From: Faecalibaculum rodentium
GTDB lineage: Bacteria; Bacillota_I; Bacilli_A; Erysipelotrichales; Erysipelotrichaceae
NCBI RefSeq assembly: GCF_001564455.1
Contig: NZ_CP011391.1
Span: forward strand, 2,070,001 to 2,102,000
Direction: 5' to 3'
Length of the DNA stretch: 32,000 bases
Part shown: positions 8,673 through 32,000 of the stretch, piece by piece
Numbering within the stretch: the stretch's first letter is position 1
How the letters are laid out: every line of letters starts with the position of its first letter
Program-made: the position numbers and the translations under genes
The notes under the pieces: model-generated
Seen by the model: only the letters and a program-made list of their open reading frames with translations
Databases searched by the model: none
What the model was told of the DNA's origin: nothing

Positions 8673-9567
8673 GTCCCTGGGTCTGGATGACGAAATCCGG
8701 GACCTTCTGGAAAAATCCATGATTGGGATGTCCGAGAAAGAAGTCGGAGCCTGGATGGACCACATTTATGATCCGGAGAATATGTTCGTCATGATCCGGG
8801 ATGACCGCCCCGTGTCCTGCATTCAGGTCAAACACCGTGTCCTTCATCTCACAAACCGGCAGCTGACGGTATCAGTGCCGGTTCTTTTCTGTACCCACCC
8901 GGATTACCGCCTCCAGCGGTGTTTCGGGAAACTCATGGAAGCCGTCATTGCACAGGCTTCGGCGAACGATCTCGCGCTCTTGACCGTCAGCGACCAGGTG
9001 AAGGTCCTGGAAAAACGCAGCTTTTTTCCCGTCGCCAGATGCCGCGAGTACTGGCTCGACAGGATACAGATTCCACCCCTGTCGGATGGATCCGTACGGC
9101 CATGGCGCGGGGAGGATCTGTATCCGGTGTATCAGGGATTTGTCCGGAATTTTCCCATCCGGCTGGAACTCAGCCGCGATGAGTTTGAGGCGCATCTTGC
9201 ATATCTGCGTGCTGCCGGGCGCCGGATCTGGGTGGCGGCGGATCAGTGGACGCATGTCGAGGGCTTTGGCGTGACGCTGCCTGTCTCGACGGGGATCCGC
9301 TTTGAGTTGCTAGCCTATGAGAACAGCCGGGCGCTGGTGAACCTTCTGGCGAGACAGGCGCGCTATACCCAGACCCTGGTGGTGAGAACCGGTCCCAATG
9401 AAGCGCTGGAGCGGCTGTTTGAAGGTGTCGTGCACCGCCCGAAGGACTCGGTGCTGGTGCGCCTCACCAACTGGCAGCTGTTGAGCCGGTGGCTGAATAT
9501 GGAACTCCGCAGCCCTCAGGCGCTCTTTGATGCCTTCCCCGCCGCGATGTGGTTTGGCCTGTTGTAG
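8650..9567 (+). CDS. GNAT-family acetyltransferase, Eis-like architecture (GNAT plus SCP2-like C-terminus), tentative
   Basis: ATG 8650 is preceded by GGAGGTGGAGG (8634-8644). VPVLFCTHPDYRLQRCFGKLMEAVI...LLTVSDQVKVLEKRSFFPV resembles the GNAT acetyl-CoA binding motif A, and the C-terminal part resembles the Eis-type sterol-carrier-like tail. The 8587 start is rejected because it has no RBS. Confidence 0.5.
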   Translation: MTHVIRSESLGLDDEIRDLLEKSMIGMSEKEVGAWMDHIYDPENMFVMIRDDRPVSCIQVKHRVLHLTNRQLTVSVPVLFCTHPDYRLQRCFGKLMEAVIAQASANDLALLTVSDQVKVLEKRSFFPVARCREYWLDRIQIPPLSDGSVRPWRGEDLYPVYQGFVRNFPIRLELSRDEFEAHLAYLRAAGRRIWVAADQWTHVEGFGVTLPVSTGIRFELLAYENSRALVNLLARQARYTQTLVVRTGPNEALERLFEGVVHRPKDSVLVRLTNWQLLSRWLNMELRSPQALFDAFPAAMWFGLL

Positions 9568-9812: not shown

Positions 9813-11087
9813 TCAATCTTTCAGGCAACCAAGAGGTACAACATAAACTCCATCACTTCGTCTATATGCATATTGACCTGTTCCGGTTAATACCATGAGA
9901 AACGAAGGTTCTTTCATCTTTTCTGTATCCAGCTTTTCTCGCAGCTTTTTAAGATTCTCTGCTCCTTCTTCGATAAGTTTGTCGCCTCCAAGTTTTATTT
10001 CAATTAATCCATAAGAACCATTTCGAAGATGGATAACCGCATCACATACAAGCCCAGTTTTATCACGGTAATGATATACATCCCCATTGAGTGCTTCAGC
10101 ATAAACTCTCAGATCACGAATACACATCGCCTCAAACAAAAGGCCGAATGTCTTTAAGTCAGCTGTCAAATCTCCCGGGCCAACACCCAAGGCAGCAGCT
10201 GCAATAGAAGGATCTACAAAAAATCTGGTATTAGAAGTCCTGATAGTAGTTTTTGACCGCAGATTTGGATTCCAGGCTTTTAACTCCTCTATCACAAATA
10301 TTCTCTCTAAGGCACGTATATAAGAATAAACAGTTGAGGAATCCAGTGCCTTCATATCATTGGCTTCCATGTCCTGACGGATTACTTCACTCGTTGCCTG
10401 CGTTCCCTGATTTCGGGCGTAGGACTTCATGAAGAGCTTAACCCGTTCAGGATTCCTCAATCTTCCATCTGCACGGGAAACATCAGAATGAACAACTGCA
10501 TCATAATACCCTGCGGCCTGATCCAATACCGTTTCATCCGTAAATCCAATTGCAAGAGGCCAGCCACCACGACATGTCAGAAAAGCCAGTTTATCCATAT
10601 CCAGTGTATTGGTCCCCGTTATTTTTTCCGGAGAGTTGAACAGTTCTGCAAGGCTCACGTCTCCTGTAGATTCTTGTGACTCATAAAGACTCATTGGACG
10701 CATAGTCAGCCAGATAAAGCGCCCAGTTCCGGTATGTCGAATATGATCCGAAGATGGTGGAACAGCAGATCCTGTCAATATAAACTGACCAAGTTCATCT
10801 CTATGATCAACTTCATATCTGACAGCATCCCACAGTTTGGGTGCGAGCTGCCACTCATCAATCAGTCTTGGGGTTTTCCCTTCCAGAAGACGTTGCGGAT
10901 CCAGTTCAGCAAGTGTCATATTCTGTGCTTCATTCTTTGGATCGGCCATATAAAGAACACTACCGGCTATCTGTTCAGCCGTTGTCGTTTTACCACACCA
11001 TTTTGGCCCTTGAATCAAAACTGCTCCAATCCCCTTAAGCTTACGCTTTAGTATTCTATCTACTATTCTTGGCTTGTATTCTTTCAT
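9813..11087 (-). CDS. AAA-type ATPase with C-terminal PD-(D/E)XK-like module (AAA_14/DUF4143-like family)
   Basis: Walker A is LIQGPKWCGKTT and Walker B-like is RLIDEWQ. The C-terminal CDAVIHLRNGSYGLIEIKLGG carries a D...E-x-K nuclease signature. A strong RBS GGAGGAG lies upstream of ATG 11087. Sampled 60-nt lines are about 37-48% GC, against about 60% in the flanks. Confidence 0.75.
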   Translation of the reverse strand: MKEYKPRIVDRILKRKLKGIGAVLIQGPKWCGKTTTAEQIAGSVLYMADPKNEAQNMTLAELDPQRLLEGKTPRLIDEWQLAPKLWDAVRYEVDHRDELGQFILTGSAVPPSSDHIRHTGTGRFIWLTMRPMSLYESQESTGDVSLAELFNSPEKITGTNTLDMDKLAFLTCRGGWPLAIGFTDETVLDQAAGYYDAVVHSDVSRADGRLRNPERVKLFMKSYARNQGTQATSEVIRQDMEANDMKALDSSTVYSYIRALERIFVIEELKAWNPNLRSKTTIRTSNTRFFVDPSIAAAALGVGPGDLTADLKTFGLLFEAMCIRDLRVYAEALNGDVYHYRDKTGLVCDAVIHLRNGSYGLIEIKLGGDKLIEEGAENLKKLREKLDTEKMKEPSFLMVLTGTGQYAYRRSDGVYVVPLGCLKD

Positions 11088-11538: not shown

Positions 11539-14007
11539 TCAGTCATGTCCGTGTTGCCTGTACTCCTCGGGAATCACCGCGCTTCGCTCAATTGCCAGCT
11601 CCAGCTCCCGGGCGCTGATCCGTCTGGCACCCTTGGTCAGCACCGAGTTCTGGATCAGACCGTCGGATGTCGCCACATGCAGCTGATACTCGTTTCTGAG
11701 CACCGAAACCAGCTTCTCGATATAGGCATCCGCTGTCTGTCCCGCCCGGGTGTACACCACCTCCAGGGCTCCCCGCATATTCCGGGACCCGGGATTATCC
11801 TGCACCCGCCACCCATCGAACACCAGGATCATCCGGCACCCCAGATAGCCCTGGTAACTCGACAGGATCCGGATCAGTTCCTGTCTGGCATCATGCAGCG
11901 GCAGTGTCTTCAGACTGCTCCAGCTGTTGATGATGTTGTACCCATCCACCACATAGCACACAGGTTTGGGCGGATGCAGCGTGACATCCTGCTGTTCCAT
12001 TGCCATGTCCCGCCGCTTGTGCGGCTTCACGGTTTTCTTCTCGTTTTTGTTCCGCCCGGATACCGCCGCAAAGGCCTTCCGGGCTTCTTCCTCCGACACC
12101 ACGGAATTCCGGTGCCCTGCCGGGGTGTATCCAGCGGTCCGCTCGCTCTCCAGCGGAATGTGCATGTGCTCCGGCGCTTCATCCCAGGGGACCGTGAACC
12201 CCGCCCCGCCGGCACAGAACACACTGTCCGGTGTGTTGCGCAGATCCGCCACCGGATCATAGTCAATTTCCGCCAGGATCCTATCCTGGTCGGGACTCGG
12301 TTCATACTGGGTCTCTCCCAGTTCCAGCATTCCCCCGCCTTTGGTCAGGGCACGGAGTTCATTCTGGAAATCTGCCAGGTTCCGCAGGGGACCGCTCCCG
12401 GTGATGGCGTCATCCTGGACCTGCACGGAAGCACCCCGCTTCTCCAGCTCATAGAGGACAGTGCCGATGAACTGGCTGTCACACTGAATGGAAAAGGAGA
12501 TCATGGGCTCCAGCAGCACCGTTTCTCCCGCTTCCCTGGCGGTCATGAGCGCCTGCCGGACCGCGCGGTTCGCTGCCTGACGAAAATCCCCGCCTTCGGT
12601 GTGCTTCAAGTGACCCTTTCCGGCGGTGACAGTGATCTTCACATCCGTCAAGTCACTCCCCGACAGAACCCCTTTGTGGCGCTTGTGGCGCAAGGCCGAC
12701 AGGATCTGTGCCTGGAACCGTGGCGAGAGTGTATCTGTGTCCACCTCACTCTCCACCGTGATCCCGCTCCCGGGTTTTGCAGGCTCCAGCCGCAAATGCA
12801 CCTCGGCGTAATGACGCAGGGGTTCAAAGTGACCGTATCCCTTCACCGGCGCGGTGATGGTCTCGCGATACACCGGGGTGCCGACAGAGAACCCCACATC
12901 GATGCCGGCCAGATCGCGGATGCGCCGGGTGAGGACTTCCTTCTGCACCTCCCCCGCGAGACGGATCCGGATCCCCCGTCTGTCGCTTTCGATATCCAGC
13001 GTCGGGTCCTGGGCCGAGAGCCGGGCCATGACCGGCCCCAGATCCGGGGCTCCTTCCGGCACCAGGATCTCGTACGCCATGGACGGCACCAGCTTCGGGC
13101 CTTCCACCGGTGCCTGGGCACCGAACACATCCCCCGGAACGAGGTCTGTACCCGTGACCACTGCTGTCATCCCCGCCGGAACGCCACCTGTGGGGGCATT
13201 CACGAGCCTGTTTCCCTGGAACACCTTCACCTGATCAAACCGGAGGTCTTCCAGCTTCGTCCTGGGTTCCAGGACACCGCCGGTGACCTTCACATGCACA
13301 CCGGCATCATCGCGCTTGTATACAAATCCCCCCAGATCCGGGCCATAGACCCTTTCCGGTGCCAGATCTGTCAGGGCATCGAGCAGCTCTGCGGTCCCCT
13401 CATGATGCAGGGCGCTCCCGAAAAACACCGGAAAGAGCTTCCGGGCCGCCACGCGGGTACGGATGTGATCCCGGGAAATCTCCCCCGTCTGGTCCCATTC
13501 CTCCAGCAGGGCATCATCTGTCAGGGCAATCTGTTCCGGATCCAGGGGAACCGCCGCAGCAGAGAGCTGTGTCTGGATATCGGCCAGCAGGTCTTCCTCA
13601 CTGCGCCTGGCGAGATCCATTTTGTTCACAAACACCAGCGCGGGAATTCCCCCGGCCTCCAGCAGCCGCCAGATGGTTTTCGTATGCGACTGCACACCGT
13701 CCAGGCCCGAGACAATGACCACCGCAAGATCCGCCGCCGAGAGCCCGCGCTCCATTTCGCTGGAGAAATCCGCATGCCCCGGTGTGTCAATGACCTGCAC
13801 CCCGGTGTCCCGCCAGGCAAATCCCGCCTCCTTGGCGTAAATCGTGATCCCCCGCTCCCGTTCCTGGATGTCGTCATCCAGCACCGTTGTCTGTTTGTCC
13901 ACCCGCCCGGGGTGGCGGATGGCCCCCGCTGTATACAGCAGGCTTTCTATCAACGTGGTTTTCCCCGCATCCACATGTGCGAGGATCGACAGCACAATAT
14001 GTTTCAT
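11539..14007 (-). CDS. Translational GTPase (TetM/TetO/EF-G-like) fused to a C-terminal YacP/Rae1-type NYN ribonuclease domain
   Basis: From ATG 14007 the GTPase motifs are MKHIVLSILAHVDAGKTT (G1), RGITI (G2), DTPGH (G3) and NKMD (G4), in an EF-G/TetM-like body of about 640 aa. A basic linker follows. Residues encoded by 11542-11961 read VVDGYN...LVFDG...QTADAYIEKL...HVATSD...RISAREL, matching the YacP/Rae1 motifs. The frame is uninterrupted in this assembly. The 82 extra N-terminal codons in the ORF track (to 14253) lack homology and an RBS. Confidence 0.85.
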   Translation of the reverse strand: MKHIVLSILAHVDAGKTTLIESLLYTAGAIRHPGRVDKQTTVLDDDIQERERGITIYAKEAGFAWRDTGVQVIDTPGHADFSSEMERGLSAADLAVVIVSGLDGVQSHTKTIWRLLEAGGIPALVFVNKMDLARRSEEDLLADIQTQLSAAAVPLDPEQIALTDDALLEEWDQTGEISRDHIRTRVAARKLFPVFFGSALHHEGTAELLDALTDLAPERVYGPDLGGFVYKRDDAGVHVKVTGGVLEPRTKLEDLRFDQVKVFQGNRLVNAPTGGVPAGMTAVVTGTDLVPGDVFGAQAPVEGPKLVPSMAYEILVPEGAPDLGPVMARLSAQDPTLDIESDRRGIRIRLAGEVQKEVLTRRIRDLAGIDVGFSVGTPVYRETITAPVKGYGHFEPLRHYAEVHLRLEPAKPGSGITVESEVDTDTLSPRFQAQILSALRHKRHKGVLSGSDLTDVKITVTAGKGHLKHTEGGDFRQAANRAVRQALMTAREAGETVLLEPMISFSIQCDSQFIGTVLYELEKRGASVQVQDDAITGSGPLRNLADFQNELRALTKGGGMLELGETQYEPSPDQDRILAEIDYDPVADLRNTPDSVFCAGGAGFTVPWDEAPEHMHIPLESERTAGYTPAGHRNSVVSEEEARKAFAAVSGRNKNEKKTVKPHKRRDMAMEQQDVTLHPPKPVCYVVDGYNIINSWSSLKTLPLHDARQELIRILSSYQGYLGCRMILVFDGWRVQDNPGSRNMRGALEVVYTRAGQTADAYIEKLVSVLRNEYQLHVATSDGLIQNSVLTKGARRISARELELAIERSAVIPEEYRQHGHD

Positions 14008-14339
14008 GGGTTCACTGTACCATTGATTGCCAAAACAGGAAAATGCCGTGGTTGCCGGTGCTGATGGTGAAAGAGGCCGATGGCGGCTTCCGTCGGGCAT
14101 AAGCCGGCATAAGTCCGGGTGATGATGGATGATGCCATCCATTGATGAAGCCGGGAGCATCGTTTGGAAAGACAGGCCTGTCTGACCATCATCGGCAGGG
14201 GAACTTTTGAAACCGGGGCTTTTCAGCCACCATCGGCAGGGAAAACGATACATTTCAGACTGTGGCAGGTTCTGTCGGGCAGGTCCCGGGGTTTGGGGAT
14301 GGGTCTCTTCTATAATGGAGGCATAAGGGGGCGCATTTC

Positions 14340-25784: not shown

Positions 25785-27235
25785 CTCGGTTTCTCACATG
25801 TTTTTAATAATTTATTCACAACGCTCATGACAATAGACTCTCGGCAGATCAGCAGTGTCAGCACGCAAGTTCCAAAAAACAACAAGGCGCTGACAGCCAG
25901 CTGCCAGAACAGGCTGGAAAGCTGCAATCCTCTCAATCCCCATAATACGAGACTGCCAGCGAAAATCATCAGGATGAGCTCTTTGAACTCGATGGTCTGA
26001 ATGATGGATGTCAGCAGTTTACGTAGATACCAGAACTGAAGCAGTGTGACAGCAAACTCCGCACAAAGTGTACCGATGGCTGCGCCAGAAGCTCCGAGAG
26101 ATGGTATGAGCAGCAGGTTAAGCAGAAAGTCTACTACTGCTCCGAATATTACAGAGCGAAGTACCAGTATTTCCTTCCCGGTGGGGACTAGAACCTGAAT
26201 CCCGGTAATGTTGGAGAGACCGATAAAGACAATGGTGGGCATGAGAATGATCATCGGTGCCACTGCAGGCAGATAGCCCGGTCCTGATAAAAACTCCACC
26301 ACCGGTCTGGCATAGACAGAAAAGTAAATGCAGCAAGGGATGGAAAACAGTAGTACAAAGGAGAAGGCCTTTGATACCAGTGACAGGAATTCTTTCTCTT
26401 TTCCCTGCTCATAATAATAGGAGAGTCTGGGCAGTAGTACAGTCCCCAGCGAGGTCACCAGTGTGACCAGAATGGTCTTGATCTTGATGGCTGCGTTGTA
26501 GTATCCCACCACTTCGTTATCCTTTATGACTCCCAGCATCACCGTATCAAGGTTTGTATAGACGGTGGTTGCAACAGACATGAAAAAGAAGGTGAAGATG
26601 GGATACAAGTGCCGTCGAAAATTCCAGGGTCTGCAGGGATGTAGATTAACCAGTTTCCGCAAGCGAATGAAGTTGAACACAGCTGATCCAAAGGAAGATA
26701 TAACTGTGACCAATCCGTACCAGAGTACATCCCCGGAATTACGGACAAGCAGAAACATGAGAGCCAGCCCCAGGGCCTTGAAGAGTACTGATACAAATGT
26801 GATGTAGGAATACTCTTCCAAGGCCTGGTATACCCAGTTCACGCCGATAACATTCAATAAAATAGCCGCTGAACAGATGGTGTAGAGGGTGGATTCTTCC
26901 CTGAATGTCGGTACGAACCACAAGAGGAGAAAGAATGCTGTATAGGAAATGAGCGCCATGATCAGGTTAATAATCAGCAGTTCCTGAACCGTTTTAGATA
27001 ATTTTTCTTTATTATCCCGGACCTGGGCACATGCCCGGATCCCGTATGATGGTACTCCTAACATTGCAACCATGGTAAAGTAGGAAATCAATGAGGTGCC
27101 CATCGCTACTGCCCCCGTACCGTTGGGTCCTAAAATCCGCGAAACGTAAGGGAAAGTTATAAGTGGGAATAAGACCGAAGAAGCAGTTAAAAAAAAGTTC
27201 ATAAAGAAGTTCAATGCTATTGATTTATTTTTCAT
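25781..27235 (-). CDS. Oligosaccharide flippase (Wzx, MOP superfamily)
   Basis: 484 aa with about 12-14 TM segments and an N-terminus typical of polysaccharide biosynthesis protein family flippases (FFMNFFLTASSVLFPLITFPYVSRILGPNGTG). Confidence 0.8.
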   Translation of the reverse strand: MKNKSIALNFFMNFFLTASSVLFPLITFPYVSRILGPNGTGAVAMGTSLISYFTMVAMLGVPSYGIRACAQVRDNKEKLSKTVQELLIINLIMALISYTAFFLLLWFVPTFREESTLYTICSAAILLNVIGVNWVYQALEEYSYITFVSVLFKALGLALMFLLVRNSGDVLWYGLVTVISSFGSAVFNFIRLRKLVNLHPCRPWNFRRHLYPIFTFFFMSVATTVYTNLDTVMLGVIKDNEVVGYYNAAIKIKTILVTLVTSLGTVLLPRLSYYYEQGKEKEFLSLVSKAFSFVLLFSIPCCIYFSVYARPVVEFLSGPGYLPAVAPMIILMPTIVFIGLSNITGIQVLVPTGKEILVLRSVIFGAVVDFLLNLLLIPSLGASGAAIGTLCAEFAVTLLQFWYLRKLLTSIIQTIEFKELILMIFAGSLVLWGLRGLQLSSLFWQLAVSALLFFGTCVLTLLICRESIVMSVVNKLLKTCEKPR

Positions 27236-27248
27236 AATAATTTATATA

Positions 27249-28344
27249 CTAAGGCACTAAAGGCTTGAATATCCGGATTTTTCTTAGTAGATTGATTAAT
27301 AAGATAGAAATAAAAATAATTAACCAAGGACCAATGAGTCGCCACCAAATTGACGTTTGACTGATGTCCATGAAATGCAATAAACCTAGAAGAACTAGCT
27401 GATGAAGTAAATAGATACCAAAAGTATATGGCCTGAACCATTCAGAAAATCTAATAATTGCTAATTGAATTCTATTTTTTCTATTTTGGCACTTGTTATA
27501 GATCTGTCGAATCAGTATAAAAACAGCAATAGACTGAAGATAGCAAGGGAGATTGTAATAGCCTTTGAAAGTCTCTACAATGTGATTCGCATTTATTGAT
27601 AAGTAGTAAGTTGGAATTAGTTGCATAATAAACCCTATTGTACCCAATATATAAAGTACAATTCTTGTTCTTTTTCTTATGCTGTAATTACCAATTAAAT
27701 ATCCTATTATAAAATATAGATAATAGTTTGCAGATACAGGCATCAACTGAGATACAGAGATTTCAGAAAAAATGTATTACAAATAAATACAGCTACAACA
27801 TTCAGCAAGAATCCCAAAACTGCAAGATATTCAAAAACATGCTTCCTGGATGCATTGGATATATTGGAGAATAACGGAACTGTTATGCAGATAGTAAAAT
27901 AAGGAATGAAAAACCAATATACACTCACTAAGTTTCCATTAATTAGACCATCAATTATTACAGGGAAAGTAATTTCTAAGAGAGGAAACCATTCTAATAC
28001 TATACTTTGATAATAAACGCCTAATACACTCCAAAAAAAATAAGGAATTAATACTTTCATTGCCCGATTCCTCAAGAATCTCTTTGTTCCATTCCTTTCT
28101 ATACTTGGAATCAAAGTTATACCGGAAATCATAAAAAAATTGGAACAGCCCAATAGAGAACTGTTTCAATTATATTTGCTGTCATCCAATATCGAGCTTT
28201 CGGATCAAAATCCCAGAAGCATGTATTCACATGCAGATATACAACAGCTATAGCAGCTGCTACACTTAAAAAATCCACAGTCTTATCAAAATTTGTGAGG
28301 TGTTGGTTCAGCATCTTATCCTTATAATATTCCATAAAAATCAC
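27249..28344 (-). pseudogene. Acyltransferase family 3 (O-acetyltransferase-type) gene split into three ORFs by two -1 frameshifts in homopolymer tracts
   Basis: ORF 28129..28344 ends ...YWAVPIFL* and the next frame reads FFMISGITL. Together these restore the family motif AVPIFFMISG if the A7 tract (28133-28139, T7 on the coding strand) were 8 long. The second break is restored if the A6 tract (27767-27772) were 7 long, giving ...CNTFFSEISVSQLMPVSANYY... The restored length of about 365 aa is typical for the family. Confidence 0.75.
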
Positions 28345-28373
28345 TCTTATCTTTTGACAATTGCGGTATCAAG

Positions 28374-29870
28374 TCACCGCAAGAAATTATCTATGTAGTA
28401 ATTGCTAGGAGAATACAACATGGTGTCCAGTTTTTCCAAACCATACTGTTCAACTAGGGAGTCCTCGGTTTTAAATAGATCCGTTCCCAATCCTAATCTC
28501 TCCGAATCATACTGAACTCCCAAGGCACTCAAAGTCGTTGGAAACATATCCAAAGCGATAAACTCTCTTGAATCGCTTCTCTGAGGTATGGTCGCCGAAT
28601 TAAGAATAGTATAATAAATCGATCTTTTAAAGTCTGAGTCAATTTTTTTTGACCATTCGTCATCCATTGTCAAATGATCACCAACGAGAATAATTGTTGT
28701 ATTAGGATACCACTCTTGAGTCTCACACCATTTCACAAACGAATAGACTCGTTTATCAGAACAGCGGATTACATTGGAATATTGGCTGTCTTCAGTCTGC
28801 TCGCAATCCGGACACAAATATCCATCATAAAAATGAGTATCTGCGGTCAAAATTGTCAGGTTGAATGGTTGCTTATTTTTTAAATCAGACAAGATGTTTT
28901 TGGCATAATCAAACAGCTTTTTATCCTCAAAGCCCCAGTTTTCCCAATACTCTTGTGAAATCAGGCCGTGATTCTTTGCCCAATACACATCTTTGATATC
29001 GTAGTCCCCATGACTTTTGAAGTAGGTGCTTCGGCTGGAATAATTTGCATCGGATCCAAGCAGGAACATATTAGTATATCCGTTGTCTTCCAGAATATTC
29101 CCTAACGCATAGGCGCCAGGAATCACAGTAGCATTTGGATCAAAGTCATCCTGTGCTCTGAAACTCTTGATATTGATCCCTGCAGTCTGTGCTACAAGAG
29201 ATCCCATTGTCCATCCCATGGCTCCCGAAGCCATGAACGAGGATCCTGCTCCAAAGTTTATCCCTTCTTTTCTCAGACGAGATAGATTAGGTATCAAACT
29301 TTTTTCAAAATCCCCTCCATTATTGATGTCATCATAAGTCTGCTCCATCGATTCCATATATATATAGATCAAATTCCGCTTCTGCTCTGGAAATGAAAAA
29401 TGAACAGTTTTAGGATCAACATAATAATCCTGGTAAATTGTACCTGACCCCTGTTGTGCAGTCAGATAAGGACCTATTTTTGAAGCTTTGAATAAGTAGA
29501 ATGAAGATAACGAGAAACAAAGCACAACGATAATCGTTGAGATTAATATTTTCTTATTATTCTGAGTTGTGAATACTGTTTTATACAAACCCCAAAATAA
29601 TAGAACTGTACTTATTATCGGTAAAACCACACACCAGAAAATGCCCTTCATCACTATTTTTTTGTCAGCATTCCCTAATGGCTGAGCAAGATTAAATAGT
29701 ATTTGTTCAAACGATACGTTGGCAAAATTAGATTGCAGATAAAACCCACTAAAGAAAAAAAGGCAAGTCAATAGAATTAAAATAACAGAAATTATAATAA
29801 CGACATATCTTTTCCATTTGTTTTGTCTCATAATTTCCACTATACAACCTGATTTCCAGAATATATCCAA
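28374..29870 (-). CDS. Alkaline-phosphatase-superfamily transferase (LtaS / OpgB phosphoglycerol-transferase-like)
   Basis: N-terminal TM block followed by a sulfatase-type domain: NLIYIYMESMEQ (metal ligand region), GAMGWTMGSLVAQTAG (nucleophile Thr region, OpgB-like), FLLGSDANYS and ILVGDHL. About 30-33% GC in sampled lines. The start may be Met14 (29831). Confidence 0.75.
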   Translation of the reverse strand: MDIFWKSGCIVEIMRQNKWKRYVVIIISVILILLTCLFFFSGFYLQSNFANVSFEQILFNLAQPLGNADKKIVMKGIFWCVVLPIISTVLLFWGLYKTVFTTQNNKKILISTIIVVLCFSLSSFYLFKASKIGPYLTAQQGSGTIYQDYYVDPKTVHFSFPEQKRNLIYIYMESMEQTYDDINNGGDFEKSLIPNLSRLRKEGINFGAGSSFMASGAMGWTMGSLVAQTAGINIKSFRAQDDFDPNATVIPGAYALGNILEDNGYTNMFLLGSDANYSSRSTYFKSHGDYDIKDVYWAKNHGLISQEYWENWGFEDKKLFDYAKNILSDLKNKQPFNLTILTADTHFYDGYLCPDCEQTEDSQYSNVIRCSDKRVYSFVKWCETQEWYPNTTIILVGDHLTMDDEWSKKIDSDFKRSIYYTILNSATIPQRSDSREFIALDMFPTTLSALGVQYDSERLGLGTDLFKTEDSLVEQYGLEKLDTMLYSPSNYYIDNFLR

Positions 29871-30187
29871 AAAGTGACTTCTTATTTTTTACTGTTTCTT
29901 TTAACTCGTAGAATATCATTGTTTTTATAATTTCATTTATTAAAATCGTTATATGTTAGATATAGTTACAAAGTTATATCAGTCAGGTCTAAGAGAAGGA
30001 AAAAGAGAATCGAAACAAGTGAAGGAAATATCTTAAATAGAACTGACTATTCCGATAACCTTTAGAATATTTATATTTAACAATATTATCATTAATGCAC
30101 TGATTAAAGTGTTATTTTATACTGTCAGACCGCTTATTTGATATAGAGCGAAATTTGCAATTTTTCAGTCTTTCACACTATCTCAGT

Positions 30188-32000
30188 TCACCAACTCTCC
30201 ACCACCATCTCCAGCAGCTCCGCAGCTGCCACTTTATCCTTCACCCGAATCAGATGGTTCCAGGCATCCTCCGGACCTAACAGGTTGATGCCGCCATCCC
30301 ACACCAGTTCCCTGTCGATCACCGCAAACGGATCAACCGGATCATCCAGCTCCCGGACGGAAAAACCTGCTTCTTTCAACCGGCGGATCGCTGCATCCTT
30401 GGTCCCTTCCCAGCCATCATCGGCAGTAGTGAAAATGACAACGTCCACTTCATTCCTGCCTTCCATAGCCTGAAGCACTTTCTCTGCCCTGGAAAGAGTG
30501 ATGGCAGGACTGGAAATTACGACTTCCTTTCTGGACTCCCGGAGATCCTGGAGGAAGGCATCCAGATAGTTGTCCAGGTCGAATATCGCATTGACGGTCT
30601 GGGATACCGCAGGATCTGTTGTCTGCAGCTGCCAGGCCGCCTTTTTGTATGTCTTCAGACGCTTTCGATACATCCCCTGGAATACCGGAATCCGCCGGTC
30701 AATGTAGTCATATACCTGCACTGTCTTCTTTCCGGGGTAGTCCCTGTTCAGCCGGCCGAGGAACTGCAGAAGCAGCCCTTCAAAGGCAATGGGTGATACA
30801 AGAAACAGGGTATCGAGCCGGGGATAGCTGAATCCTTCTCCGATTTTCTGGCCTGTGGCAATGATGAGAACTGATTCGTTGTCCGGAACTCTCTTCAGCT
30901 GACTCAGCTGTTCCCTGTTCTCTTTCTCAGAGTTGTCTCCATAAACCAGGAACAGATGATCTGCACTTCCTTCCAGGTGTCTGGCCAGCGTGGCTGCATG
31001 TGATTTCAGCCTTACGAATATGGCACAGGTATGACCTTCTGCAAGGGCCTGACGGACATCACCTGCAATCAGTTCGTTTCTCACAGGATCCTGTGCAATG
31101 TATTCATACAGCTCGTAGATGGCTGGCTTTTCTTCCCGCAGGCAGAGGCTGCGGGTAAACCGCGGGATAAGGAGCCTCTGCAGGTTCTGGCTCTTCGCCT
31201 TATCCATGGCACTGTAGGTGTGCCGAATATCGCCAATGAACATGGTGATAAGAGGATCCAGCTTGTCCGCCCGTTTCGGTGTGGCTGTCATGCCGTAGAG
31301 ATACGCAGGAGAAATCCGGTCCAGGATCTTTCGAAAGGTCGGAGATGCTGCATGGTGGCATTCATCCACGATGACCATTCCATAGCGGTCAGGAATGGAA
31401 TCCATGTTTCCCAGTGTCTGTGCCATGGCGATATCCACAAGGCCTGTCATGGTGTTTTTGGATCCCTTCAGGACACCGATGTGGCTTTTTCGCCTTCTGG
31501 TTTTCCCAGCCTTTGTCCGATACTCCGGAAGGGGTTCATCAAATTTCAAAAACTCCTCCAGCTCTTGCTGCCACTGTTCCAGAAGTGCGGTCTTTTCAAT
31601 GAGAATCAGCGTATTGACCTTCCTGTGCGCTATCAGGCTGGCTGCCACAACGGTTTTTCCGAAGGAAGTGGCGGCAGAGAGAATTCCATAGTCGTATTTC
31701 AGCAGTTCTTCCTGCGCTGCCTGCTGTTCCTGTCGGAGCGAACCCTGGAATTCAACGCGAAGCCATGCTCCCTTTTGCCGTTTGTCTCTGATCCGATAGT
31801 CGATGCGGCTGCTTTCCAGCCGGTGTTTCAGCGTATCCCGTATTCCACGGGGCAGCCGGATATAGCCGTCCACATCGCTGCCGATATACAGGATGCGGGG
31901 TGTGTTCCAGTTGGAATATCCAAAGCGTGTGTTCTCATACCAGGCGGGATTTGCCATGGCTGCCAGATTCCGAATCTGATTCTGCAGTCTGGGATGGAGT
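30188..32000 (-). CDS. SF2 helicase (DEAD/DEAH, ResIII-like), 5' end outside the window; degenerate PLD-like C-terminal domain
   Basis: Motif I AATSFGKT, motif II VDECHH, motif III GMTATP and motif VI QFLGRLNR. The frame stays open upstream of the Met at 31957 to the window edge (...LHPRLQNQIRNLAAMANP...). The last 114 aa (30188-30532) follow a PLD-like pattern without the HxK dyad. Confidence 0.8.
   Translation of the reverse strand, partial: LHPRLQNQIRNLAAMANPAWYENTRFGYSNWNTPRILYIGSDVDGYIRLPRGIRDTLKHRLESSRIDYRIRDKRQKGAWLRVEFQGSLRQEQQAAQEELLKYDYGILSAATSFGKTVVAASLIAHRKVNTLILIEKTALLEQWQQELEEFLKFDEPLPEYRTKAGKTRRRKSHIGVLKGSKNTMTGLVDIAMAQTLGNMDSIPDRYGMVIVDECHHAASPTFRKILDRISPAYLYGMTATPKRADKLDPLITMFIGDIRHTYSAMDKAKSQNLQRLLIPRFTRSLCLREEKPAIYELYEYIAQDPVRNELIAGDVRQALAEGHTCAIFVRLKSHAATLARHLEGSADHLFLVYGDNSEKENREQLSQLKRVPDNESVLIIATGQKIGEGFSYPRLDTLFLVSPIAFEGLLLQFLGRLNRDYPGKKTVQVYDYIDRRIPVFQGMYRKRLKTYKKAAWQLQTTDPAVSQTVNAIFDLDNYLDAFLQDLRESRKEVVISSPAITLSRAEKVLQAMEGRNEVDVVIFTTADDGWEGTKDAAIRRLKEAGFSVRELDDPVDPFAVIDRELVWDGGINLLGPEDAWNHLIRVKDKVAAAELLEMVVESW

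Follow-up and report, generated by a model that had tools for sequence, protein, structure and literature searches.

Rae1 (YacP) of Bacillus subtilis cuts messenger RNA (mRNA) in a translation- and frame-dependent manner that needs stalled ribosomes, and its cut feeds rescue by transfer-messenger RNA (tmRNA) (PMC12407103, PMC10351889); among its targets is an antibiotic-induced efflux operon (PMC10351889). Its discoverers (Deves et al., 2025) have since moved the cut site to 12 nt upstream of the A-site codon, i.e., to the stalled ribosome's trailing end, and propose that the enzyme may sense collided ribosomes (PMC12407103). Among the translational GTPases, the tetracycline protection protein TetM places Pro509 in the tetracycline site, in contact with C1054 (PMC8161019), and an architecture that joins a GTPase of this kind to a YacP-type NYN ribonuclease on a single polypeptide has already been reported (Atkinson 2015, PMC4342817; Matelska 2017, PMC5499597). 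We describe here one such GTPase-NYN fusion, encoded on the minus strand at 11539..14007 (822 codons plus stop) of a 32,000-nt stretch of the Faecalibaculum rodentium genome (hereafter, the window), together with its relatives in other bacteria. Given the two surveys and the RefSeq annotation, the fusion is not a new sighting. An earlier note on this DNA had started from the premise that Rae1 cuts in the A site, which the revised position of the cut makes outdated (PMC12407103). What is new here is that the family appears to form a separate clade, sister to the Tet proteins, with an ultra-conserved domain IV tip of its own, that about a quarter of its lineages lack the NYN domain, and that the tether between the two halves is never shorter than about 53 amino acids (aa).

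Faecalibaculum rodentium is a mouse-gut species of the Erysipelotrichaceae, and its RefSeq protein WP_067559033.1, named "translation factor GTPase family protein", is an exact sequence match of the 822-aa fusion. This protein is encoded on a 2,542,486-bp contig, and its 90% cluster comprises 252 members spread over many contigs. The minus-strand frame 11539-14007 is free of stops through all 822 aa, and the central claim of the earlier note, that one uninterrupted open reading frame (ORF) joins an EF-G/TetM-like GTPase to a YacP/Rae1-type NYN domain, is borne out by the translation and by Pfam: the profile search recovered both halves and their boundaries, with a highly significant NYN_YacP match. 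Each motif listed in that note was located in the protein, namely AHVDAGKT, RGITI, DTPGH and NKMD in the GTPase and VVDGYN, LVFDG, QTADAYIEKL, HVATSD and RISAREL in the nuclease, as was the stretch NKNEKKTVKPHKRRD that it had called a basic linker, and the span that it assigned to the nuclease (11542-11961) agrees with the mapped NYN domain (11572-11961). The mechanically called ORF extends upstream as far as 14253; we accept the start at 14007 because the RefSeq protein and relatives sharing 99% identity with it are all 822 aa long. The frame is indeed open for 82 codons upstream of this ATG (14008-14253, minus strand), and the peptide that it would encode contains many Cys, Trp, Pro and His residues and has the appearance of non-coding sequence. 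In a search of 5.8 billion proteins, all 120 best clusters (42-99% identity, 809-879 aa) showed the same architecture of GTPase plus PF05991, and the genome scan described below found the fusion to be widespread, in hundreds of gut and rumen Bacillota species. An assembly join or a frameshift artefact, including the possibility raised earlier that two separate genes had been wrongly joined, is ruled out by the identical RefSeq protein and the recurrence of the architecture across hundreds of species.

Based on these sequences, the gene is predicted to encode a free-standing accessory translation factor that consists of a GTPase body, a tether of about 60 aa and an NYN endoribonuclease, with both enzymes predicted to be intact. 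An alignment of 58 full-length relatives was the source of the invariance and per-region conservation values given below and of an AlphaFold2 model (mean predicted local distance difference test (pLDDT) score of 81.5) that shows a five-domain EF-G-like body, a disordered tether and a confident NYN domain. The G domain (residues 2-217; 13357..14004, on the minus strand like all parts of the gene; Pfam GTP_EFTU, E = 1.8e-52) carries the P-loop AHVDAGKTT, switch I RGITI (Thr55), switch II DTPGH (His78), NKMD and SAL, and the G1-G5 motifs and His78 are invariant across the 58 relatives. Domains II and III (approximately residues 218-379; 12871..13356), assigned from the model and from the EF-G and TetM structures that Foldseek matched, form a beta-barrel of the EF-G type and an alpha/beta domain, and Pfam EF-G_D2 and EFG_III were matched in relatives. 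Domain IV (residues 380-490; 12538..12870), assigned from Pfam EFG_IV (E = 2.5e-18) and from the alignment with Tet proteins and EF-G, holds two family-specific tips, GHFEPLRHYAEVH (residues 390-402) and GHLKHTEGGDF (residues 465-475), and domain V (residues 497-574; 12286..12519) matches EFG_C (E = 4.7e-13). It is followed by a post-domain-V module (residues 575-621; 12145..12285), which has no Pfam match and was delimited by alignment, conservation and the model; this module is predicted to be folded, with a beta-hairpin at residues 595-606, and conserves the pattern YDPxxDLRNxxxSVFCxxGxGxxVPWDExxxHMHI. In Foldseek, the body matches ribosome-bound structures of EF-G, mtEF-G2 and TetM at E = 1e-39 to 1e-47 (EF-G at about 1e-45). 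That is, the catalytic motifs and the five-domain architecture identify the body as an EF-G/EF2-type translational GTPase.

The tether (residues 622-682; 11962..12144) has pLDDT values below 50, with residues 622-679 as the disordered stretch of the model, is rich in Lys, Arg and Glu, and includes SEEEARKAF and GRNKNEKKTVKPHKRRD; its length ranges from 53 to 185 aa among 221 long forms, with a median of 63 and 53 aa as the minimum. The YacP/Rae1-type NYN domain (residues 683-812; 11572..11961) was mapped with Pfam NYN_YacP, which matches residues 686-809 at E = 9.3e-38 and 130.3 bits against a gathering cutoff of 24.6 (131-165 bits in four distant relatives), and with the crystal structure of B. 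subtilis YacP/Rae1 (5MQ8), to which the C-terminal 186 aa align at E = 9e-21. In the latter alignment, Rae1 residues D7, N10, D53, D81, S103 and D104 correspond to D688, N691, D731, D760, S781 and D782 of the fusion, all six of which are invariant in the 58 relatives, and thus the catalytic acidic residues, whose loss on proper alignment would have spoken against the nuclease, are retained. The substitutions D7N D81N define the published catalytic-dead Rae1 mutant (PMC10351889). Since the equivalents of D7 and D81 and the GTPase motifs are all invariant, both halves look catalytically competent. Mean conservation is highest in domain IV (0.73), followed by the G domain (0.66) and the NYN domain (0.63), and lowest over residues 626-684 (0.42).

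The GTPase body is most closely related to the Tet proteins. Among solved structures, the nearest by sequence is TetM (E = 1e-56), and the nearest annotated relatives, TetB(P), Tet(W), Tet(M) and Tet(O), share 29-32% identity over 97-99% of the body; identity to the EF-G and EF-G2 paralogues is 26-32%, and EF-G matches among annotated genes are at about 25-30%. The score against the NCBIfam model tet_protect (NF012153) is 316.2 bits vs. a cutoff of 775; the fusion likewise falls far short of every cutoff in the models of this collection for Tet(M), Tet(Q), Otr(A) and Tet M/W/O/S, and the EF-G model TIGR00484 gives 206.9 bits vs. an equivalog cutoff of 659.4. When members of the family were aligned to two EF-Gs and to Tet(M), Tet(O), Tet(W) and TetB(P), loop III of the Tet proteins, YYSPVSTPADF, proved to have given way to (G/A)HxKHTEGGDF in the family, with TetM Pro509 aligning to Lys468 (a Lys in 57 of the 58 members and an Arg in the other) and His466, at the tip of domain IV, aligning with T. 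thermophilus EF-G His573. Loop I, in turn, is shortened to the invariant GHFEPLRHYAEVH (aligned as GHFEP--LRHYAEVH), and the EF-G GGRGQ motif is deleted. In a rough neighbour-joining tree the family is one clade, sister to the Tet proteins. Hence, because its members score below the curated cutoffs, have their domain IV loops replaced and fall in a separate clade, the family appears to represent a distinct translational-GTPase subfamily that is neither a Tet protein nor an EF-G. The sub-cutoff NCBIfam score and the Pro509 to Lys replacement, together with the chromosomal housekeeping context described below, support the statement of the earlier note that this is not a plain tetracycline-protection protein.

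To assess how widely the family is distributed, we used both family-specific motifs of domain IV as the query against a collection with a single genome for each species and confirmed at least 596 stretches; one gene may give two of these, which corresponds to at least several hundred species. Every one of the best 80 loci spans domain IV through the NYN domain; F. rodentium is not among these 80, and the best match there is 49% identical. Genome labels among the matches listed include Erysipelotrichaceae, Oscillospiraceae, Lachnospiraceae (Agathobacter, Roseburia, Blautia, Dorea), Ruminococcus/Ruminococcaceae and Peptostreptococcaceae, and a HMMER search with residues 380-625 returned 399 clusters at 50% identity (E <= 1e-30). 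The carriers are gut and rumen Bacillota, in which the fusion is a free-standing chromosomal gene of a housekeeping type. Two loci on short contigs carry other labels, a Bifidobacteriaceae bin (L004) and an Alloprevotella bin (L050); their fusion genes are 42-46% identical to Firmicutes proteins, and these occurrences most likely represent binning contamination.

As to function, the reading that we tentatively favor, and to which we would give somewhat less than an even chance, is that, with its GTPase docked on a stalled ribosome, the protein uses the tethered nuclease to cut the mRNA at the ribosome edge. More specifically, the GTP form of the body would dock in the ribosomal factor-binding site, with the A site free or stalled, as the fold match to EF-G and TetM and general knowledge of this family suggest, and the family-specific domain IV tip would probe the state of the decoding centre. 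From the intersubunit space, the tethered NYN domain would then extend to the periphery of the ribosome, stalled or collided, and cleave the mRNA there. Once cut, the message would be committed to decay and the ribosome to rescue by tmRNA, as for Rae1, and GTP hydrolysis would free the factor from the ribosome. In a queue of ribosomes, the factor would sit on a queued ribosome and its nuclease could reach the mRNA between neighbours, where Rae1 is thought to cut. The geometry of the protein may be read in the same terms. In the alignment, the post-domain-V module takes the place of the TetM C-terminal helix, which we take to pack beside domain IV, near h44 and H69, in the TetM-70S structure, and therefore the tether would have its origin far inside the intersubunit space. 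Domain IV presumably leaves no room in the A site for a folded NYN domain, and the 53-aa minimum of the tether would fit the need to reach mRNA at the ribosome surface. Consequently, the part of the earlier proposal that had the nuclease delivered to the A site is disfavored, since the disordered tether is never shorter than about 53 aa and domain IV itself would fill that site. With the A-site element dropped, the broader idea of a GTP-gated, ribosome-targeted mRNA cleavage factor is retained, the fusion being genuine and conserved and both of its halves looking competent. A more specific version, to which we would give a somewhat smaller chance, is that the protein is a single-polypeptide bacterial no-go-decay factor, whose specialised domain IV would recognise the stalled or collided ribosome and in which GTP would license the cut at the ribosome edge or the disome interface.

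Several points weigh against the mRNA-cutting reading. Roughly one lineage in four consists of short forms that have neither the nuclease nor an NYN gene beside them. How far the tether reaches is estimated from its length alone, at approximately 80 Å as a random coil and up to approximately 200 Å when extended. The nuclease domain of the fusion misses roughly the last 20-35 positions of the YacP profile (the match covers positions 2-130 of 166, and up to 147 in relatives), the RNA target could be mRNA, rRNA or tRNA, and how stand-alone Rae1 binds the ribosome is itself still an open question (PMC12407103). Finally, no experiment on any family member was found in the literature; in line with what the earlier note had stated about functional characterisation, our full-text search, whose coverage of the relevant papers is incomplete, found no functional study of the fusion.

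The short forms also bear on an alternative hypothesis, that is, that the GTPase is the functional core, acting in rescue, splitting or anti-stalling through domain IV, and the nuclease is a dispensable, minor add-on. When the 150 best representatives were classified, 85 were N-terminally complete long forms, 21 were N-truncated long forms, 32 were complete short forms of 619-708 aa and 12 were ambiguous. The short forms (e.g., P0145, P0154, P0157, P0159, P0169 and P0177) stop 0-26 aa past the "MHI" motif of the post-domain-V module and retain this module as well as both domain IV motifs, which is what would be expected if the GTPase were the core, and domain IV is more conserved than the NYN domain. 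They are also real genes: at three short-form loci (L089, L091 and L092), all mid-contig, the stops are natural and the downstream genes are unrelated, with no NYN gene adjoining the NYN-less GTPase (the contig of a fourth, L090, is too short to tell). Given these nuclease-less lineages, the GTPase chassis must serve a function independent of the nuclease, which is therefore not essential to it. The long forms, in contrast, argue against a minor role of the nuclease, since their NYN catalytic residues are invariant and the domain is conserved at 0.63 across relatives of 42-99% identity, and thus the nuclease appears to be under strong selection where it is present. Further, long forms hold the basal branches and about three quarters of the lineages. 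A neighbour-joining tree of 96 members groups 20 short forms in one clade nested among long forms, leaves about six more scattered and has long forms on its basal branches; the likeliest history, a tentative one given that it draws on a distance tree alone, is that the fusion arose early and that secondary losses of the NYN domain came later. Taken together, the nuclease appears to be a strongly conserved but non-universal payload, and we consider it unlikely that it is no more than an add-on.

A second alternative assigns the nuclease another target. Under this hypothesis, the GTPase would dock on ribosomes that are defective, idle or immature, and their rRNA or bound tRNA would be cut by the NYN domain as part of ribosome quality control, turnover or maturation. 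The operon shared with mrnC and yacO led to the original prediction that YacP functions in rRNA/tRNA processing (PMC5499597, PMC4342817), a tether of at least 53 aa starting in the intersubunit space could reach many rRNA elements, and the present data do not single out the substrate. However, Rae1, the only characterised YacP-family enzyme, cuts mRNA and does so in a translation- and frame-dependent manner, and the fusion gene shows no conserved link to rRNA-processing genes. Specifically, clustering of ORFs over 82 loci revealed no conserved neighbour, the commonest being a generic ABC exporter found at 16 loci in variable positions, and, across the clustered loci, no conserved link to rRNA-processing genes, immunity genes or a partner gene. 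We therefore regard an rRNA- or tRNA-directed role as improbable, and the cutting of mRNA at the ribosome edge remains our preferred reading.

Less likely still, in our view, is that the fusion is a ribosomal protection protein against tetracycline or another A-site antibiotic, with the ribonuclease as a second resistance mechanism, as Atkinson 2015 suggested. Several observations favor such a role: TetB(P), Tet(W), Tet(M) and Tet(O) are the nearest characterised relatives of the body at 29-32% identity, no solved structure matches it better by sequence than TetM, the rough tree puts the family next to the Tet clade as its sister, some members are named TetM/W/O/S family by NCBI, and an efflux operon induced by antibiotics is among the targets of Rae1 in B. 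subtilis (PMC10351889). Against it stand the tet_protect score (316 bits vs. the 775 cutoff) and the replacement of Pro509 by Lys in 57 of 58 members, and by Arg in the other, along with that of the whole YYSPVSTP loop by GHxKHTEGG. The upstream region and the gene context point the same way. The 5' intergenic region (332 nt; 14008..14339, minus strand) is without a detectable regulatory element: no leader peptide, attenuator, riboswitch, terminator or promoter consensus was found in it, no clear Shine-Dalgarno sequence precedes the ATG at 14007, the region has no unusual RNA fold (z = -0.7), and no Rfam family was found anywhere in the 32,000-nt window. By contrast, tet(M) has an annotated leader peptide. 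Further, the gene is chromosomal and lies in variable housekeeping contexts. In the window its neighbours are leu genes, a GNAT gene, an AAA_14/DUF4143 ATPase, a lipoprotein-like ORF, a thioesterase and a polysaccharide cluster, the fusion loci of Agathobacter rectalis and Monoglobus have housekeeping contexts too, and no mobile element was found around the fusion gene in the window or in the A. rectalis and Monoglobus loci examined. The A. rectalis fusion, of 933 aa, is labelled a TetM/W/O/S-family tetracycline-resistance protein by RefSeq, a label for which the loop III evidence gives no support.

Finally, a stress- or phage-triggered, toxin-like effector that cuts ribosome-bound RNA in abortive infection is very improbable, since, despite the PADLOC PDC-S01 match of the downstream neighbour at 9813-11087 (E = 2.9e-62) and a BrnT/CopG toxin-antitoxin pair upstream of the A. 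rectalis gene, the fusion itself gives only a marginal GTPase match in PADLOC-DB (LeoA, E = 4e-4), the other 80 loci hold no PDC-S01-like ATPase, conserved immunity or partner genes were not found, and the gene is broadly distributed and free-standing in housekeeping neighbourhoods. A defence-island reading of the window was rejected for the same reasons, namely that the fusion has no PADLOC match of its own beyond the marginal LeoA hit and that the PDC-S01-like neighbour is unique to this window.

A few observations on the surroundings of the gene are worth recording. The downstream neighbour (9813-11087, minus strand) is an AAA_14/DUF4143 ATPase that matches the PADLOC candidate PDC-S01 nearly end to end, and, as no such ATPase lies beside the fusion at any of the other 80 loci, this adjacency looks incidental. 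In A. rectalis (locus L001), the BrnT/CopG pair lies at 4426-4934, directly upstream of the 933-aa fusion gene and divergent from it. Between leuA and the GNAT gene of the window are two ORFs of 238 and 157 aa (7554-8270 and 8292-8765, both on the minus strand) without a Pfam match; the second overlaps the 5' end of the opposite-strand GNAT ORF (8587-9567), and probably at least one of these calls is wrong. At the end of the polysaccharide-synthesis cluster, G+C content drops to 0.33-0.36 over positions 27000-30000, compared to about 0.53 elsewhere in the window. This stretch contains an acyltransferase fragment and a sulfatase-family (LTA-synthase-like) ORF and is probably a horizontally acquired part of the cluster. 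Adjoining it, at the edge of the window, is a 589-aa ORF (30188-31957, minus strand) with a ResIII/DEAD helicase domain resembling the res subunit of type III restriction systems.

The fusion is of interest beyond this genome. The joining of a Rae1-type nuclease to a GTPase of the factor-binding site is a "Rosetta stone" for how Rae1-type nucleases find stalled ribosomes, and it makes the question directly testable, since a single protein allows ribosome docking, dependence on GTP and the position of the cut to be measured together. It is carried by hundreds of gut and rumen Bacillota species, including major gut commensals, and annotation pipelines often label its genes as TetM-family tetracycline resistance; that label is probably wrong, which matters for resistome surveys. 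If the protein is such a no-go-decay factor, the place and manner in which Rae1-type nucleases engage the ribosome would be fixed, and it would seem that a rescue factor with a housekeeping role in gut Firmicutes has the tetracycline protection proteins as its sister offshoot.

In conclusion, the fusion shares elements with several known systems, and its predicted function is unlike that of any studied one. With the Tet proteins, the body has in common the five-domain layout with a short G' region and, with TetB(P) in particular, the YDP motif after domain V. It differs from them in that loop III (Pro509) is replaced and loop I altered, in that a folded post-domain-V module, a tether and a nuclease stand in place of the Tet C-terminal helix, and in that, unlike the Tet genes, its gene is chromosomal, not on mobile elements and without a leader peptide. 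EF-G and EF-G2 share with it the fold, the intact GTPase centre and the His at the domain IV tip; the fusion gene, however, lies outside the str operon that holds EF-G (fusA), and its product adds the C-terminal nuclease. The NYN domain belongs to the same fold family as Rae1/YacP (PDB 5MQ8/5MQ9, PF05991), and both are linked to the ribosome, the fusion through the predicted docking of its GTPase. Whereas Rae1 is a stand-alone protein of about 170 aa whose activity has been demonstrated experimentally, the NYN domain of the fusion is the C-terminal end of an 822-aa GTPase, held on a tether of about 60 aa, and its activity is predicted from sequence. The Hbs1-Dom34 pair, with a translational GTPase that probes the A site of stalled ribosomes, offers an analogy for the sensing half. 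For the cutting half, SmrB and Cue2 are endonucleases of stalled ribosomes (PMC12407103). The likeness to SmrB, MutS2, Cue2 and Dom34-Hbs1 is one of functional analogy only, as the sequences are unrelated and the nuclease of the fusion is an NYN rather than an Smr domain. Compared to SmrB, Cue2 and Dom34-Hbs1, the fusion would, by this analogy, unite the GTPase sensor and the mRNA nuclease on one polypeptide.

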